From assembly GCA_016869675.1 (NCBI GenBank), contig VGDP01000008.1, positions 5,147-69,146 of the forward strand: a stretch of DNA of 64,000 nt. Direction: 5' to 3'. The notes beneath the pieces are model-generated. The model had not been told where the DNA came from and did not search any database. It worked only from the letters and a program-made list of their open reading frames with translations. Position 1 is the stretch's first letter. The number at the start of each line of letters is the position of its first letter. Made by a program: the position numbers and the translations under genes. The DNA comes from Alphaproteobacteria bacterium. Lineage in GTDB: Bacteria > Pseudomonadota > Alphaproteobacteria > SP197. Of this stretch, positions 56,268-63,136 are shown one piece after another.

Positions 56268-57755
56268 GTGCAGATGCCCGCGCCCGACTTGGCCGTGCTG
56301 GCGCGCCGCGCCGCGCTGGTCGCCCGTTTGCGCTCGCTTGTCCCCGGCGAAGGCGTCATCGCCGACGAGGTGGGCCTGCGCGCCTACGATTGCGACGGCC
56401 TGACCGCGTACCGGCAGGTGCCGCTCGCCGTCGTGCTGCCCGAGCGGACCGAGCAGGTCTCGGCGGTCCTCCGTTTCTGCCAGAGCGAAGGCGTCAAGGT
56501 GGTGCCGCGCGGCGCCGGCACGGGCCTGTCGGGCGGCGCGCTGCCGCTGACCGACGGCATCGTGCTCGGACTCGGCAAGTTCAACCGCATCCTCGAGGTC
56601 GATGCGGCGAACCGCTGCGCCGTGGTGCAGCCGGGCGTCACCAACCTGTCGGTCAGCCAGGCCGCGGCGCCCCACGGCCTCTACTACGCACCGGATCCGT
56701 CCAGCCAGATCGCCTGCACCATCGGCGGCAACGTGGCCGAGAACTCGGGCGGCGTGCATTGCCTGAAGTACGGCGTCACTGCAACCAACCTGTTGGGCGT
56801 CGAGCTGGTGCTGATGGACGGCACCGTGGTCCGCCTGGGTGGCAAGGCGGGCGATGCGGGCGGCTATGACCTGCTCGGCGTCGTCACCGGGTCCGAGGGG
56901 CTTCTGGGTGTCGTGACCGAGGCGACCGTGCGGCTCCTGCCCGCGCCCGCGACGGCGCGCGCCCTGCTGCTCGGCTTCACGACCAGCGCCGATGCCGCGC
57001 GTTGCGTCGCCGCGGTGATCGCGGCCGGTATCGTCCCGGCCGGCATGGAGATGATGGACAAGCCGGCGATCGACGCGACCGAGGCGTTCTGCCACCCGGG
57101 CTATCCCATGGACGCCGGTGCGATCCTGATCGTCGAGCTGGACGGCCACGCGGTCGAGGTGGACGAGCTTGTGGAACGCGTCGCGACGATCGCCCGCGAC
57201 GGTGGCGCCACCACCGTGCGCGCCAGCGCCGACGAGGACGAACGGCTGCTGTTCTGGAAGGGCCGCAAGTCGGCGTTCCCGGCGGTCGGACGCATCACGC
57301 CGGACTATCTGTGCATGGACGGCACGATCCCGCGCGCCCGCGTCGCCGAGGTGCTGGAGCGCATGACGGCCCTGGCCGCGGCGCGCGGCCTGCGCGTGGC
57401 CAATGTCTTTCACGCCGGCGACGGCAACCTGCACCCGCTGATCCTCTACGACGCCAACGAGCCGGGTCAGCTCGAGGCGGCCGAGGCCTTGGGCGCCGAT
57501 ATCCTGAAGCTCTGCGTCGAGGTCGGCGGCGTGCTGACCGGCGAACACGGCGTGGGCATCGAGAAGCGCGACCTGATGGGCACCATGTTCAGCGACGCCG
57601 ATCTGGCCCAGCAGCAGCGGCTCAAGTGTGCCTTCGACCCCGACGGCCTGGCCAACCCGGGCAAGGTGTTCCCGACGCTGCACCGCTGCGCCGAACTCGG
57701 CCGCATGCATGTGCACGAGGGCCAGCTCAAGTTCGCCCACCTGCCCCGGTTCTGA
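56268..57755 (+). CDS. glcD: Glycolate oxidase FAD-binding subunit
   Basis: FAD_binding_4 plus FAD-oxidase C-terminal domains. 495 aa. First gene of glcDEF. Confidence 0.85.
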   Translation: MQMPAPDLAVLARRAALVARLRSLVPGEGVIADEVGLRAYDCDGLTAYRQVPLAVVLPERTEQVSAVLRFCQSEGVKVVPRGAGTGLSGGALPLTDGIVLGLGKFNRILEVDAANRCAVVQPGVTNLSVSQAAAPHGLYYAPDPSSQIACTIGGNVAENSGGVHCLKYGVTATNLLGVELVLMDGTVVRLGGKAGDAGGYDLLGVVTGSEGLLGVVTEATVRLLPAPATARALLLGFTTSADAARCVAAVIAAGIVPAGMEMMDKPAIDATEAFCHPGYPMDAGAILIVELDGHAVEVDELVERVATIARDGGATTVRASADEDERLLFWKGRKSAFPAVGRITPDYLCMDGTIPRARVAEVLERMTALAAARGLRVANVFHAGDGNLHPLILYDANEPGQLEAAEALGADILKLCVEVGGVLTGEHGVGIEKRDLMGTMFSDADLAQQQRLKCAFDPDGLANPGKVFPTLHRCAELGRMHVHEGQLKFAHLPRF

Positions 57756-57762
57756 GACGGCA

Positions 57763-58963
57763 CGCCATGGCGGCCCTTAACCCCGCCGACGCGCACGAGG
57801 TGCGCGCCATCGTGGGCGAAGCCATGGCGGCCGGTGCGACGCTGGCCGTCGAAGGCGGCGGCAGCAAGCGCGGGCTTGGCCGACCGGTCGCGGCGACGCA
57901 CACCCTGAGCCTGGTGCGACTCGACGGCATCATCGACTACGCGCCGTCCGAGCTGGTGCTGACCGCGCGGGCGGGAACCGCGCTTTCGGTCATCGAGGCA
58001 CTGCTCGCCCAGCATGGCCAGCACCTGGCGTTCGAGCCGCCCGACACGTCGGCGCAGCTCGGGCCTGGCGCGCCGACGCTGGGTGGCCTGGTGGCGTGCA
58101 ACCTAGCGGGGCCGCGCCGCCTGCGCGCCGGCGCCTGCCGCGACCATGTGTTGGGCATCGAGGCGGTCACCGGATTCGCCGAGATCGTCAAGGCCGGCGG
58201 CAAGGTGGTGAAGAACGTCACGGGCTACGACCTGCCCAAGCTGTTCGCCGGCAGTTTCGGCACGCTCGGTGTCATGACCGCGATCACGATGAAGGTCCTA
58301 CCGCGCCCTGAGAAGACGCGCACCGTGCTTGTCTTCGGCCTGGACGGCGCCGCGGCCGGATCCCTGATGATCGAGCTCGCGCGCGGACCGCTCGATGTCT
58401 CGGCGCTCGCCTACGTGCCGCGCGCGGTCGCCGCGCGCTCGGCCGTGGGTTACGTGGCCGGTGCCGGATCGTCGGTGCTGGCGGCGCGGCTGGAGGGGCC
58501 GCCGCGCTCGGTGCTGGCGCGCACCGAGGCGGCGCGTGCGCGGCTCGGTGCGCACGCGCCGGTCGAGGAGCTGCACGGCCACAACTCGGCCGCTCTGTGG
58601 CGTGAGATCGGCTTCGGCGCCCTGCTGGCCGCGCCGGCCTCGCGCCCGGTCTGGCGCCTGGGGGTACCGCCGGCGGACGGCGCGGCGGCGCTGCGCGCGT
58701 TGGAACAGGCTGGCGCCGAAGGCTATCTCGACGCCGCGGGCGGCACCCTCTGGGCCGCGGCGGAGGAACCGGTCCCGGTCCACGACCTCGCCGCGCGGCA
58801 CGGCGGTACGGCGATGCTGGTCCGCGCCCCGGCCGAAGCGCGCGCGCGCATGCCCGTCTTCGCGCCCCAGGCCCCAGCGCTCGCCGCGCTCGAGCGGCGC
58901 GTCAAGCAGGCGTTCGACCCCAAGGGCGTGTTCGAGCCCGGCCGCCGCGTCGAAGGCGTCTGA
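57763..58963 (+). CDS. glcE: Glycolate oxidase subunit GlcE (FAD-binding)
   Basis: 400 aa FAD-binding PCMH-type protein between glcD and glcF. Confidence 0.8.
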
Positions 58964-58965
58964 CC

Positions 58966-60276
58966 ATGCGCACCAGCTTCGCCCCGCACCGGCTCGACGA
59001 CCCGGACATCCGCGAAGCCAACGGCATCCTGCGCACGTGCGTGCACTGCGGGTTCTGCACGGCGACGTGCCCGACCTACGTGTTGACCGGCGACGAGCGC
59101 GACAGCCCGCGCGGGCGCATCGTCCTGATCAAGGAGATGCTGGAGCGCGACGAACCGGCGGACGCCACGGTCACGCGCCACATCGACCGTTGCCTCGGTT
59201 GCCTGGCGTGCACCAGCACGTGCCCGTCGGGCGTCGACTACATGCACCTGGTCGATCTGGCGCGCGACCGCATCGAGCGCACGTACCACCGACCCGCGGC
59301 CGATCGTGTGCGCCGCTGGGCGCTTGCCCACGTGCTGCCCTACCAGCACCTGTTTCGATGGGCCATGGGCCTGGGGCGGCTGACGCGGCCCGTCGCGGCT
59401 TGGCTGCCCGCCGGCCTGTGCGCCATGATCGAACTGCTGCCCGCGCGGGAGCCCGTGCCCGCCGCCGAGGCCGCGCCCGCGACCGTCGCGACGCCGGTCC
59501 TGCGCGTGGCGCTGGCGCCGGCCTGCGTGCAGCCGGCGCTCGACCCGGCGATCGACGCCGCGTGTCGGCGCCTGCTCGCGCGGCTCGGTGTCCAGGTCGT
59601 GGCGGTTCCCGGCACGGGGTGCTGTGGTGCGCTCACACACCACATGGGTCGGCGCGAGGACGCGCGCGCCGCCGCCCGGCGCAACGTCGCGGCGTTCCGC
59701 CCCTGGCTGGCCGCCGGTCGGTTGGACGCGATCGTCGTCACCGCGTCCGGCTGCGGCACGCTGCTCAAGGACTATGGCCACCTGCTGGCGGACGACCCGG
59801 ACTTCGCCCACGATGCCCGGCGCCTCGCCTCGCTCGCGCGCGACGTGACCGAGGTACTCGACCCCCTGATGCGGGCGCGGACTCCGCCGGCCGGCGATCA
59901 CACGGGCCTCTCCGTCGCCTATCACGCCGCCTGCTCGCTGCAGCATGGCCAGAAGATCGCCGGCCTACCGGAAGCCCTGCTGCGGTGCGCCGGCTTCGAG
60001 GTGCGACCCATCGGCGAAGGCCACCTGTGCTGCGGCTCGGCCGGCACCTACAACCTGCTGCAACCCGCCTTCGCCACGGCCCTGCGTGATCGCAAGGCGC
60101 GCAACATCGCGGCGACAGGCGCCAAGGCCCTCGCCGCCGGCAACATCGGCTGCCTCGTGCAGTTGCGCGGAGTCGTCGGCGTTCCGGCGGTGCACACGGT
60201 GGAGCTGCTCGACTGGGCTTGGGGCGGCCCGGCACCGGCCGCGTTCGCCCGCGCCGTCGATCACGAGACTGTGTAG
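58966..60276 (+). CDS. glcF: Glycolate oxidase iron-sulfur subunit
   Basis: Two 4Fe-4S ferredoxin motifs (CVHCGFCTATCP, CLGCLACTSTCP) and C-terminal CCG domains. Confidence 0.85.
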   Translation: MRTSFAPHRLDDPDIREANGILRTCVHCGFCTATCPTYVLTGDERDSPRGRIVLIKEMLERDEPADATVTRHIDRCLGCLACTSTCPSGVDYMHLVDLARDRIERTYHRPAADRVRRWALAHVLPYQHLFRWAMGLGRLTRPVAAWLPAGLCAMIELLPAREPVPAAEAAPATVATPVLRVALAPACVQPALDPAIDAACRRLLARLGVQVVAVPGTGCCGALTHHMGRREDARAAARRNVAAFRPWLAAGRLDAIVVTASGCGTLLKDYGHLLADDPDFAHDARRLASLARDVTEVLDPLMRARTPPAGDHTGLSVAYHAACSLQHGQKIAGLPEALLRCAGFEVRPIGEGHLCCGSAGTYNLLQPAFATALRDRKARNIAATGAKALAAGNIGCLVQLRGVVGVPAVHTVELLDWAWGGPAPAAFARAVDHETV

Positions 60277-60869: not shown

Positions 60870-60882
60870 CAACGGGTTCGAC

Positions 60883-61683
60883 CTAATTCAACGCGTCGAG
60901 CAGCGCTCGGGCTTCCTTCAAGTCGCGTGTCTCGACGCCCTCGGTGAACCAGCCGTGAATCGGCGCGAGCAGGTCGTGAGCGCGACGTCGTTCGCCCCGC
61001 TCCGTCCACAGCCGCGCCAAGCCCATGGCCGCACGGAGCCCCCACAGGCGAGCCTTCTGCTCCCGCGCCGTCGCCAGCGCGCGCTGGAACGCGGCCTCCG
61101 CCTCGTCCTGTGCGTCGGGGCGTAGGAGGACGAGGACCACGCCTTGCCGCCGTTGAATCTCGGCACGGGCGAAGAGAGCCCCGCTTTGCTCCGCCTGCGC
61201 TTCGGCCTCGAGACTCGTCGCTATCGCCGCGTCGTCCTCGTGCGCCTGGGGGTAGCCGAAGTAGACCAGCACCCCGTCGCCCATGTACTTCGCGACATGG
61301 CCGCCGTAGCGCGCCACCTCCGCCCCCAGCGCGTCCTGGTACGCGCCCAGCAGATCCCGTAGCTCCTCAGGGTCCAGCGTCAGCGCCAGCTCCGTAGACC
61401 CCACAAGATCCACGAACATCACCGTCAGCTGCCGGCGCTCCGCCGGAGACGAGGCGGTGCGCGAGGGCGACGGGGCGGCGGCCCCCTGGTCCCGGATCGC
61501 CTTCAGCAGTTTGAGGCGGGCGCCCAGCGGCAGGCCGAGTTCCTTGAGATGCTCGTCGCTGAGCTCGCGCAGCGAATCGCCGTCGATCTCCGCCGCGGCG
61601 AAGGCCGGCGCGTACTTCTCGAGCCCGAGTGATGTCAGCCACGCCGCAAGGTCACGCAAGATGCCCCGGTCTTGGGTCGTCAC
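60883..61683 (-). CDS. Internally deleted remnant of a SAM-domain / class III nucleotidyl-cyclase / STAND-ATPase / TPR protein (266 aa; intact ORF but domain-incomplete)
   Basis: N-terminal SAM domain ([50 protein letters not shown]). First half of the cyclase domain ([17 protein letters not shown]...[20 protein letters not shown]). Then only the characteristic C-terminal tail of the >1000-aa homologues ([14 protein letters not shown]...[24 protein letters not shown]). Confidence 0.55.
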
Positions 61684-61699
61684 GACACGCTAGCATCCC

Positions 61700-63136
61700 T
61701 CACGCGCGGCGTGCCAGGCCCTCGATCCAGGCGACGTGGAGCGTGTTGGTGGCACCGGGCGTGCCCACGGGCATGCCGGCGGTGATCACGATGCGCTGGC
61801 CCGGCGTCGCGAACCCTTCGGCCACGGCCAGCTGGCAGGCACGCACGATCATGTCGTCGAAGCTGTGCGCGTCATCGGTCAGCACCGAGTTGACGCCCCA
61901 CGCGAGCGCCAGCCGGCGGGCGACCGCGATGCTTGGCGTCAGGCCCAGGATCGGCGCCTCGGGCCGTTCGCGCGCGGCGCGCAGCGTGGTTGAACCGCTG
62001 ACCGAGTAGGTCGCGATCGCCGCGGCGTGCAGGGTCTGCGCCACCTGGCGGGCGGCCGCGGTGATGGCGTCGGGGCCGGTGCGCTCGGGGTCCGCCTGGG
62101 CCATGTCGAGCATGCGGCGGTGCCGCTCGTCGCGCTCCACGGTCGTGATGATGCGGTCCATGATCGCCACCGCCTCGACAGGGAAGTCGCCGCTGGCGGT
62201 CTCGGCCGACAGCATCAGGGCGTCGGCGCCGTCGTAGGCGGCGGTCGCCACGTCGGACGCCTCGGCGCGCGTCGGCGCCGGCGACCGCACCATGGACTCC
62301 AGCATCTGCGTCGCGACCACCACGGGTTTGCCCGCCTGGCGCGCCACGCCCACGATGCGCTTCTGCAGGCCCGGCACCTCCTCTGGTGGCACCTCGACGC
62401 CCAGATCGCCGCGCGCGATCATCACCGCGTCGGCCATGTCGACGATGTCCTCCAGGTGCTCGATGGCCGACGGCTTCTCCAGCTTGGCCATCAACGCCGC
62501 GCGGCCGGCGATCAGCCGGCGCGCCTCGGCCACGTCGTCCAGGTGCTGCACGAAGGAAAGCGCGATCCAGTCGGCCCCGTTGTCCAGGCCAAACTGCAGG
62601 TCGCGGCGATCCTTGTCGGTCAGGGGGCCCAGCGGCAGGCGCACGCCGGGCAGGTTGACGCCCTTGTTGTCGCTGAGCGCACCACCGACCACCACGGTGG
62701 TCTCCGCCGACCGCGCGTCGCATCGTTCGACGCGCAGCCGTACCCGGCCATCATCCAGCAGCAGCAGGGCGCCGGGCTCGAGCGCGGCGAACACTTCGGG
62801 GTGAAGCAGCGGCGCGCGCGTCGCGTCGCCCGCCGCCGCGTCCTGATCCAACCGGAATGGCTGGCCGCGGATCAGCTCGACCAGCCCGCCGGCGAACTTG
62901 CCAACTCGGATCTTCGGGCCCTGCAGGTCGACCAGGATGCCGAGCGGCCGGCCAATGGATGCTTCGAGCGCGCGAATGGCCGCGACGCGAGCCTTCTGGT
63001 CGTCGTGGCTCCCATGGCTCATGTTGAGCCGGAAGACGTCGACCCCGGCCTCGACGAGCGCGCGGATCTCGGCCGCCGTCGAGCTCGCGGGGCCCAGCGT
63101 CGCGACGATCTTCGCCTGGCGGGTGCGGCGCGTCAC
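61700..63136 (-). CDS. pyk: Pyruvate kinase
   Basis: KIVATLGPAS...motifs of pyruvate kinase. 478 aa. GTG start immediately after the upstream stop codon. Confidence 0.9.
   Translation of the reverse strand: MTRRTRQAKIVATLGPASSTAAEIRALVEAGVDVFRLNMSHGSHDDQKARVAAIRALEASIGRPLGILVDLQGPKIRVGKFAGGLVELIRGQPFRLDQDAAAGDATRAPLLHPEVFAALEPGALLLLDDGRVRLRVERCDARSAETTVVVGGALSDNKGVNLPGVRLPLGPLTDKDRRDLQFGLDNGADWIALSFVQHLDDVAEARRLIAGRAALMAKLEKPSAIEHLEDIVDMADAVMIARGDLGVEVPPEEVPGLQKRIVGVARQAGKPVVVATQMLESMVRSPAPTRAEASDVATAAYDGADALMLSAETASGDFPVEAVAIMDRIITTVERDERHRRMLDMAQADPERTGPDAITAAARQVAQTLHAAAIATYSVSGSTTLRAARERPEAPILGLTPSIAVARRLALAWGVNSVLTDDAHSFDDMIVRACQLAVAEGFATPGQRIVITAGMPVGTPGATNTLHVAWIEGLARRA

Follow-up and report, generated by a model that had tools for sequence, protein, structure and literature searches.

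An open reading frame of 266 aa downstream of pyk as an in-frame deletion derivative of a large SAM–cyclase–AAA_16–TPR gene in an alphaproteobacterial lineage

A short open reading frame, here called ORF266, lies behind the pyruvate kinase gene pyk in the alphaproteobacterial window (the whole 64-kb stretch of DNA that was analysed), and the evidence supports its being the product of an in-frame internal deletion in a gene of about 1,100 aa encoding a SAM–cyclase–AAA_16 (STAND-like)–TPR protein. It is an internally deleted derivative of a multidomain family that is already known but uncharacterised, and it forms a lineage-specific insertion between pyk and a convergent TPR gene. The product cannot be a nucleotidyl cyclase or a nucleotide-driven switch, because the cyclase half with the Asn/Arg motif, the second substrate-specifying residue and the whole P-loop NTPase are gone and no cyclase fold is predicted. 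We are inclined to regard ORF266 as a recent, still-open gene remnant that has no function of its own.

The coordinates of ORF266, of its parts and of its neighbours are listed in Table 1. The initial annotation had placed an ORF of 266 aa 16 nt downstream of pyk, and this was confirmed, since the pyk stop codon occupies 61700-61702 and the gap to the ORF266 start is exactly 16 nt. The TTG start at 61659 fits the usual N-terminus of the family and is used in the NCBI/Logan gene calls P0121 and P0123. The GC contents at the three codon positions of ORF266 are 0.78 (GC1), 0.48 (GC2) and 0.85 (GC3), the last being within the range of the window's genes (GC3 0.877 ± 0.036), a pattern normal for the genome, and the opposite-strand ORFs that overlap it are the usual by-product of 70% GC. 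Neither promoter-like nor terminator-like sites were found around ORF266 by consensus search, no family was matched in an Rfam search at the locus, and no flanking direct or inverted repeats hinting at a mobile element were found beside it. Judging from the 16-nt spacing, ORF266 is probably co-transcribed with pyk, and with no detectable promoter of its own it would be expressed by read-through from glxK–pyk. On the plus strand, a glcD/glcE/glcF-like glycolate oxidase operon at 56268-60276 is followed by the signal-peptide-bearing TPR gene of 182 aa, which is a conserved convergent neighbour of pyk in several alphaproteobacterial orders.

Table 1. Positions of ORF266, its domains and junction, and the adjoining genes and spacers in the window.
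Feature	Position (nt)	Strand	Description
Convergent TPR gene, 182 aa	60321..60869	plus	Signal-peptide-like N-terminal segment; conserved pyk neighbour in Alphaproteobacteria
Spacer of 13 nt	60870..60882		ORF266 stop to stop of the convergent TPR gene
ORF266	60883..61683	minus	266 aa; GTG start, TAG stop included; supported as in-frame internal-deletion derivative of a SAM–cyclase–AAA_16–TPR gene
C-terminal module, residues 153-266	60886..61227	minus	Corresponds to the last ~113 residues of full-length proteins (final TPR-like helices and conserved tail); 18/18 conserved residues
Deletion junction, residues 153-158	61210..61227	minus	Directly after the AHEDDA motif; placed by free-gap dynamic programming and tblastn HSP ends
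N-terminal ~40% of class III nucleotidyl cyclase domain, residues 80-152	61228..61446	minus	Pfam positions 7-78 of 183; 30/31 conserved residues
SAM (sterile alpha motif) domain, residues 10-64	61492..61656	minus	SAM_1 51 bits, E 1.7e-13; pLDDT 83-90; 9/9 conserved residues
Alternative TTG start, ORF266 codon 9	61657..61659	minus	Product of 258 aa, N-terminus MRDLAAWL
Spacer of 16 nt	61684..61699	minus	pyk stop to ORF266 start; resembles the entire 12-nt pyk–TPR spacer of relative L182
pyk (pyruvate kinase, 478 aa)	61700..63136	minus	Same-strand upstream neighbour of ORF266; adjoins the TPR gene in relatives

The SAM domain and about half of a cyclase domain, both of which the initial annotation had recognised, were recovered by Pfam. 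SAM_1 was matched with 51.2 bits against a cut-off of 23 and over model positions 6-61 of 64, which assigns the segment to the SAM families (PF00536/PF07647), and AlphaFold gives it five short helices. Guanylate_cyc was matched over residues 84-155 only, with 19.8 bits, below the gathering score of 21.9, and the complete catalytic domain of ~180 residues (PF00211) is not present; the NCBIfam and PADLOC matches (TOMM kinase/cyclase, LipJ, PycC) are confined to the same N-terminal half of the cyclase. Class III cyclases rely on six catalytic residues, namely two metal-binding Asp, a substrate Lys with Asp/Thr, and the transition-state Asn and Arg. ORF266 retains D92, K132 and D136, which in class III cyclases are the two metal-binding aspartates and the substrate lysine, and the set of six is incomplete: with the deleted part went the Asn/Arg motif (family consensus GETPNLAARL) as well as the second substrate-specifying residue. 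The AAA_16 P-loop NTPase, which homologues carry at 282-468, gave no Pfam match in ORF266 and no tblastn match in the window, and only the last ~113 residues are left of the region that holds the C-terminal TPR array (~230 residues). The conserved tail of the large proteins, LLAPVYGWFTEGFDTxDLKEAKALLDEL, is present in all of its 18 conserved columns. The AlphaFold2 model of ORF266, built on a 16-sequence alignment, has a mean pLDDT of 64 and a pTM of 0.29, with values of 83-90 in the SAM domain, below 50 at residues 135-199 and 58-88 in the C-terminal helices, so that disorder is predicted for the half-cyclase segment and around the junction. A complete cyclase domain in a structural model, which had been named beforehand as an outcome that would overturn the deletion proposal, did not appear.

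The exhaustive HMMER search covered 1.84 billion representatives and yielded 1,556 matches at E ≤ 1e-30. About 140 of the best 150 of these 1,556 representatives are 1,049-1,158 aa long and align with ORF266 in two or three disjoint segments, among them one at the N-terminus and one at the C-terminus, which bears out the earlier proposal of an in-frame internal deletion in a SAM–cyclase–STAND ATPase–TPR protein of >1000 aa. Three full-length homologues have the architecture SAM_1 (~3-60), Guanylate_cyc (~87-260), AAA_16 (~282-468) and TPR/TPR_MalT (~860-1090). The N-terminal 152 residues of ORF266 are 50-61% identical and its C-terminal 113 about 45-61% identical to these large SAM (PF00536)–cyclase (PF00211)–AAA_16 (PF13191)–TPR proteins; however, ORF266 is devoid of the family residues ~155-1000, that is, of the second cyclase half, the whole P-loop NTPase and almost all TPRs. 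Against 12 full-length homologues the absent segment amounts to 827-857 aa, typically ~845, in keeping with the roughly 800 aa of central cyclase half, ATPase and TPR array that the initial annotation had reported as missing, and the signature C-terminal tail that it had noticed can be aligned, free of internal gaps, with the final ~113 residues of the 1,100-aa homologues. ORF266 is truncated relative to all of its closest homologues, with loss of essential parts. A SAM + cyclase + AAA multidomain family with no known function has been described as over-represented in root-nodule bacteria (Seshadri et al. 2015, PMC4653623). A single large deletion inside a gene of the ~1,100-aa family, in frame and about 2.5 kb long (about 845 codons), would account for ORF266. 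It would have fused the cyclase domain, just past AHEDDA (residue 152), to the last ~113 residues, and would have taken out the entire NTPase, nearly all TPRs and the second catalytic half, in which GETPNLAARL and the second substrate-specifying residue lie.

The junction was located by dynamic-programming alignment with one free long gap between ORF266 and 12 full-length homologues, in which the best split falls after residues 150-158 for nine homologues and after residues 183-193 for three. When 25 full-length proteins were compared with the window by tblastn, the HSP of the N part ended at 61228 and that of the C part started at 61209. No internal gap is needed to align residues 159-194 with the penultimate TPR-like helices (family TGERWxEAELxRxxGExL), with a conservation within the leave-one-out range of genuine members. 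A BLAST extension into residues 159-190 had suggested that residues 173-188 correspond to the cyclase strand beta4 (RVGIATGxVVVG), but this register fails in 6 of 12 conserved columns. By sequence comparison, residues 159-194 thus derive from the penultimate TPR-like helices and not from strand beta4. Because of the best split, the failed beta4 register, the gap-free fit to the TPR-like helices and the tblastn HSP ends, we place the junction at residues 153-158, about 30 residues earlier than the breakpoint near residue 185 that had been proposed in the initial annotation. No ATPase or TPR sequence of the parent family was left elsewhere in the 64-kb window in any frame (tblastn).

A number of other family members, truncated or deleted independently of one another, likewise have an N part that ends at full-length position ~158-178, just past the AHEDDAERAVRAGL motif, as seen in loci L128, L139, L150, L143, L110 and L123 and in proteins P0249, P0014 and P0108. 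The N part of ORF266 ends at this place too, and mid-cyclase may be a hotspot for breakpoints.

Short homologues that combine SAM, a partial cyclase and the tail were also found (P0007, P0011-P0016, P0018, P0020, P0033, P0108 and P0249, with longer ones being P0006, P0022, P0131, P0143, P0144, P0162 and P0217), and about 20 short in-frame proteins of this N+C kind are known in the family besides ORF266. Their junctions, mapped on full-length proteins, vary substantially, with the N part ending from ~155 to ~370 and the C part starting from 844 to 1082, though in several independent short forms the C part begins at a common position, about 993-1006, perhaps because a module able to fold was selected. 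Most of them group nearest the full-length protein P0136 and share 40-49% identity with ORF266. Like ORF266, the forms P0007, P0011, P0012, P0014, P0108, P0249, P0006 and P0022 carry SAM and a partial or complete cyclase that continues in frame into the conserved tail; they differ in having junctions of their own in lineages of their own, and none has the 152/153 junction of ORF266. In the protein searches, that junction was found in no protein outside its own ≥90% cluster. The N part of ORF266 is 61% identical to a full-length protein versus 57% to the nearest short form. As the junctions differ and the N part of ORF266 is nearest a full-length protein, the short N+C forms are, on the sequence evidence, independent deletion products and not one short family; a shared junction or monophyly, expected of a single short family, was not observed.

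Among the best 150 representatives the lengths are bimodal (213-628 or 1,049-1,158 aa), with no moderate internal deletions, and every short form is without the NTPase. P0011, P0013 and P0027 have one junction in common (AHEDDAERAV/STAQRQSAKLWELRAA; DDAERAV/STAQRQ) and are nearly identical from the cyclase onward, with SAM domains only ~70-80% identical, a pattern suggestive of exchange between paralogues through recombination or gene conversion. A full-length paralogue of 1,109 aa is located ~1.4 kb upstream of the P0011 form, and one Peripla_BP_6 gene separates the two (loci L173-L179). The P0011/P0125 alleles contain only two synonymous and one non-synonymous variable sites, too few SNPs for pN/pS. 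A word-index protein search listed no match >461 aa, whereas the nearest relatives in the exhaustive search are mostly of ~1,100 aa; the word-index search thus seems to be biased toward short proteins for the ORF266 query, which inflates the apparent share of short forms.

Across orders of Alphaproteobacteria, pyk adjoins the convergent TPR gene in many genomes, with the stops -4 to 112 nt apart in 13 of the 21 loci that have both genes. In the pyk search of genome contigs, the best relatives among the matches listed were only 64% identical, and closer ones (77-82%) were obtained through a protein search combined with contig look-ups. Of the six closest relatives, four have pyk next to the TPR gene at a spacing of 12-76 nt (38 nt in L184, 12 nt in L182, 76 nt in L180 and 22 nt in L183, with pyk identities of 82%, 81%, 78% and 77%, respectively), and different genes follow pyk in the other two. 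A SAM–cyclase gene, long or short, was found at the pyk/TPR site in none of these six relatives. The initial annotation had proposed a check of whether relatives carry the full-length gene downstream of pyk, and these relatives do not. Because pyk and the TPR gene are adjacent and no SAM–cyclase gene lies there in the closest relatives, ORF266 is a lineage-specific insertion. The inserted DNA is essentially ORF266 plus at most ~17 nt, in a spacer of ~12-76 nt, and occupies a tight, operon-like position. Either ORF266 or its full-length parent would have been inserted between the two genes in one lineage only; insertion of the full-length gene followed by deletion in place and the arrival of an already shortened gene both fit the data. 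Relative L180 belongs to the same MAG (GCA_009694045.1) that carries the P0024 remnant elsewhere, and its pyk/TPR site is empty.

Unrelated insertions are present in the same spacer in other alphaproteobacteria, two examples being an alpha/beta-hydrolase of 335 aa (Parvibaculum MAG) and a stretch of ~3.3 kb of other DNA (Xanthobacteraceae MAG; loci L022 11435-12442; L078 11428-14708; L034, L065, L076), and the site seems to be permissive to gene insertion.

In addition, an unbiased sample of 80 metagenomic loci was picked by N-terminal motifs only. Intact full-length genes number about 30 in it; also present are tandem arrays (L102, L161), numerous copies with apparent frameshifts, remnants of the N part alone that stop at ~158-170 (L128, L139, L150) and one large-deletion allele with the tail out of frame (L143), a single allele being too few for a test of frame bias. 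No in-frame N+C forms were found among the 80 loci. As these forms are absent from this unbiased sample, in which N-only remnants and an out-of-frame deletion are present, their prominence in the protein searches is largely a ranking effect. The closest homologue of the N part of ORF266, P0024, is 67% identical to it. The SAM–cyclase–STAND–TPR family of Alphaproteobacteria thus shows itself to shed many truncated derivatives.

Several features of individual loci were also recorded. P0024 (301 aa; L091 6963-7868) is a 3′-truncated SAM–cyclase–AAA_16 remnant in a Lake Baikal MAG (GCA_009694045.1), at a locus unrelated to the pyk/TPR site. On the soil metagenome contigs L102 and L161, two to four full-length paralogues stand in tandem, head to tail, ~12-400 nt apart. 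Copies that read as frameshifted, with one or two frameshifts, and are otherwise full-length were seen in JGI soil contigs (L093, L094, L100, L124, L125, L131, L132, L141, L145, L153 and L169), and these could be pseudogenes or sequencing errors.

ORF266 was found identical and in the same pyk–ORF–TPR context on 18 contigs. Of these, 10 were inspected, each from a sample of its own (nine Logan runs and one ENA assembly), and they show zero mismatches in ORF266 and pyk. The same protein with V for M at residue 1 is present on 10 JGI contigs, the longest being 334 kb, and the NCBI MAG record MBM3583931.1 holds it under the shorter TTG-start call (258 aa). The allele P0123 differs by T17I. ORF266 is identical and fixed in all sampled populations, and pN/pS could not be computed for it because the 10 contigs show zero DNA differences and hence no polymorphism.

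Given these records, the chance that ORF266 is an assembly or chimera artefact of a metagenomic contig is negligible; members of the family occur in multiple copies and metagenomes are the source of many short forms, as such an artefact would have it, but the identical DNA and context in 10 independent ENA/Logan samples and the recurrence of the protein, with the alternative start call or the V for M, in JGI and NCBI MAG records reject it. The initial annotation had named homologues of about 266 aa with the same architecture as evidence for a bona fide short family. Such homologues do exist, with those of 201-330 aa covering 95-97% of the query, as would be expected if SAM, half cyclase and tail were the native state of an ancestral short family. 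A family of this kind is nevertheless very improbable as the source of ORF266 and is in effect refuted by the junctions, which differ in most short homologues, and by the full-length protein that is the nearest relative of the ORF266 N part; moreover, the half cyclase domain is not predicted to fold and is not a known folding unit. A deletion across two tandem paralogues, joining the middle of the cyclase of one gene to the last TPRs of the next, would agree with the arrays of two to four full-length paralogues that are common in the family (L102, L161) and with the best full-length match being P0140 for the N part and P0157 and P0133 for the C part. We consider such a chimera quite unlikely, as the difference in best match is within noise at 45-61% identity and no trace of any family member, let alone an array, was seen at the pyk/TPR site in relatives.

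Whether the shortened product does something is the more evenly argued matter. The retained parts show no sign of neutral decay: the frame is open, the native C-terminus and stop are kept, and the residues conserved at the 90% level are retained at 9/9 in the SAM domain, 30/31 in the cyclase part and 18/18 at the C-terminus, compared with leave-one-out means of 0.95-0.97 for full-length members. Such retention agrees with a recent deletion as well as with a SAM/C-tail adaptor still under constraint. By analogy with truncated plant NLRs, ORF266 might be a functional mini-protein whose SAM domain and C-terminal helical module are kept by selection; without catalysis of its own, it would co-oligomerise with full-length SAM–cyclase–STAND proteins as their adaptor, decoy or dominant-negative partner, which we consider possible though doubtful. 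This would suit the conservation at the full-length rate, the open frame with normal codon bias, the fixation of an identical gene in at least 10 samples, the tight, ORF-sized insertion directly behind pyk, and the bimodal lengths in the best 150 representatives, in which no intermediate deletion falls between 628 aa and 1,049 aa; it would also suit the about 20 other in-frame N+C forms, among which P0011, P0013 and P0027 have one junction in common despite diverged SAM domains and the P0011 form lies ~1.4 kb behind a full-length paralogue with one gene between. However, the ORF266 junction occurs in no protein outside one clonal population, no full-length SAM–cyclase–STAND paralogue was found in the 64-kb window, disorder is predicted in the half-cyclase and around the junction, the 80 unbiased DNA loci contain N-only remnants and an out-of-frame N+C deletion but no in-frame N+C form, and the P0011 alleles have too few SNPs for an informative pN/pS. 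The broader proposition that in-frame N+C mini-versions are recurrently made and retained as non-catalytic regulators or decoys, ORF266 being one that was captured into the glxK–pyk transcription unit, appears unlikely to us. The remnant reading is favoured because of the catalytic death, the predicted disorder at the junction, the confinement of the junction to one clonal population, the lack of a paralogue in the window and the fragment-shedding habit of the family, though the tight, ORF-sized insert, the open frame, the normal GC3 of 0.85, the retained family-conserved residues, the C-part start at about 993-1006 common to several short forms and the fixation of an identical ORF speak against it. 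We infer from these lines together that ORF266 lacks a function; at most it would yield a soluble SAM-domain protein.

The finding is of use chiefly for annotation, as public records name ORF266 and other short forms of this kind "class 3 adenylate cyclase" or "hypothetical protein", although none of them can be a cyclase. Should the in-frame N+C forms prove to be under selection, they would parallel, in bacteria, the truncated NLR regulators, and would suggest that the family interacts through its SAM domain and C-terminal tail; the present evidence does not require such selection.

Among known systems, the mycobacterial cyclase–ATPase–TPR–LuxR proteins (Rv0386 type) fuse a class III cyclase to a STAND-like NTPase and helical repeats. 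They share this fusion logic with the parent family of ORF266, but they have no SAM domain, a C-terminal HTH and another tail, and ORF266 retains nothing of the common NTPase part. The cyclase N-half of ORF266 also matches the Pycsar PycC cyclases (PADLOC models) at E 2e-12 to 1e-8; unlike these, ORF266 has only half a domain, no effector gene nearby and no defence-system context, and the PycC matches were rejected as a sign of a defence system, being generic class III cyclase homology only. In plants, truncated NLR/STAND proteins act as adaptors or decoys, and the likeness of ORF266 to them is a functional analogy, in that an N-terminal interaction domain is kept without the NTPase.
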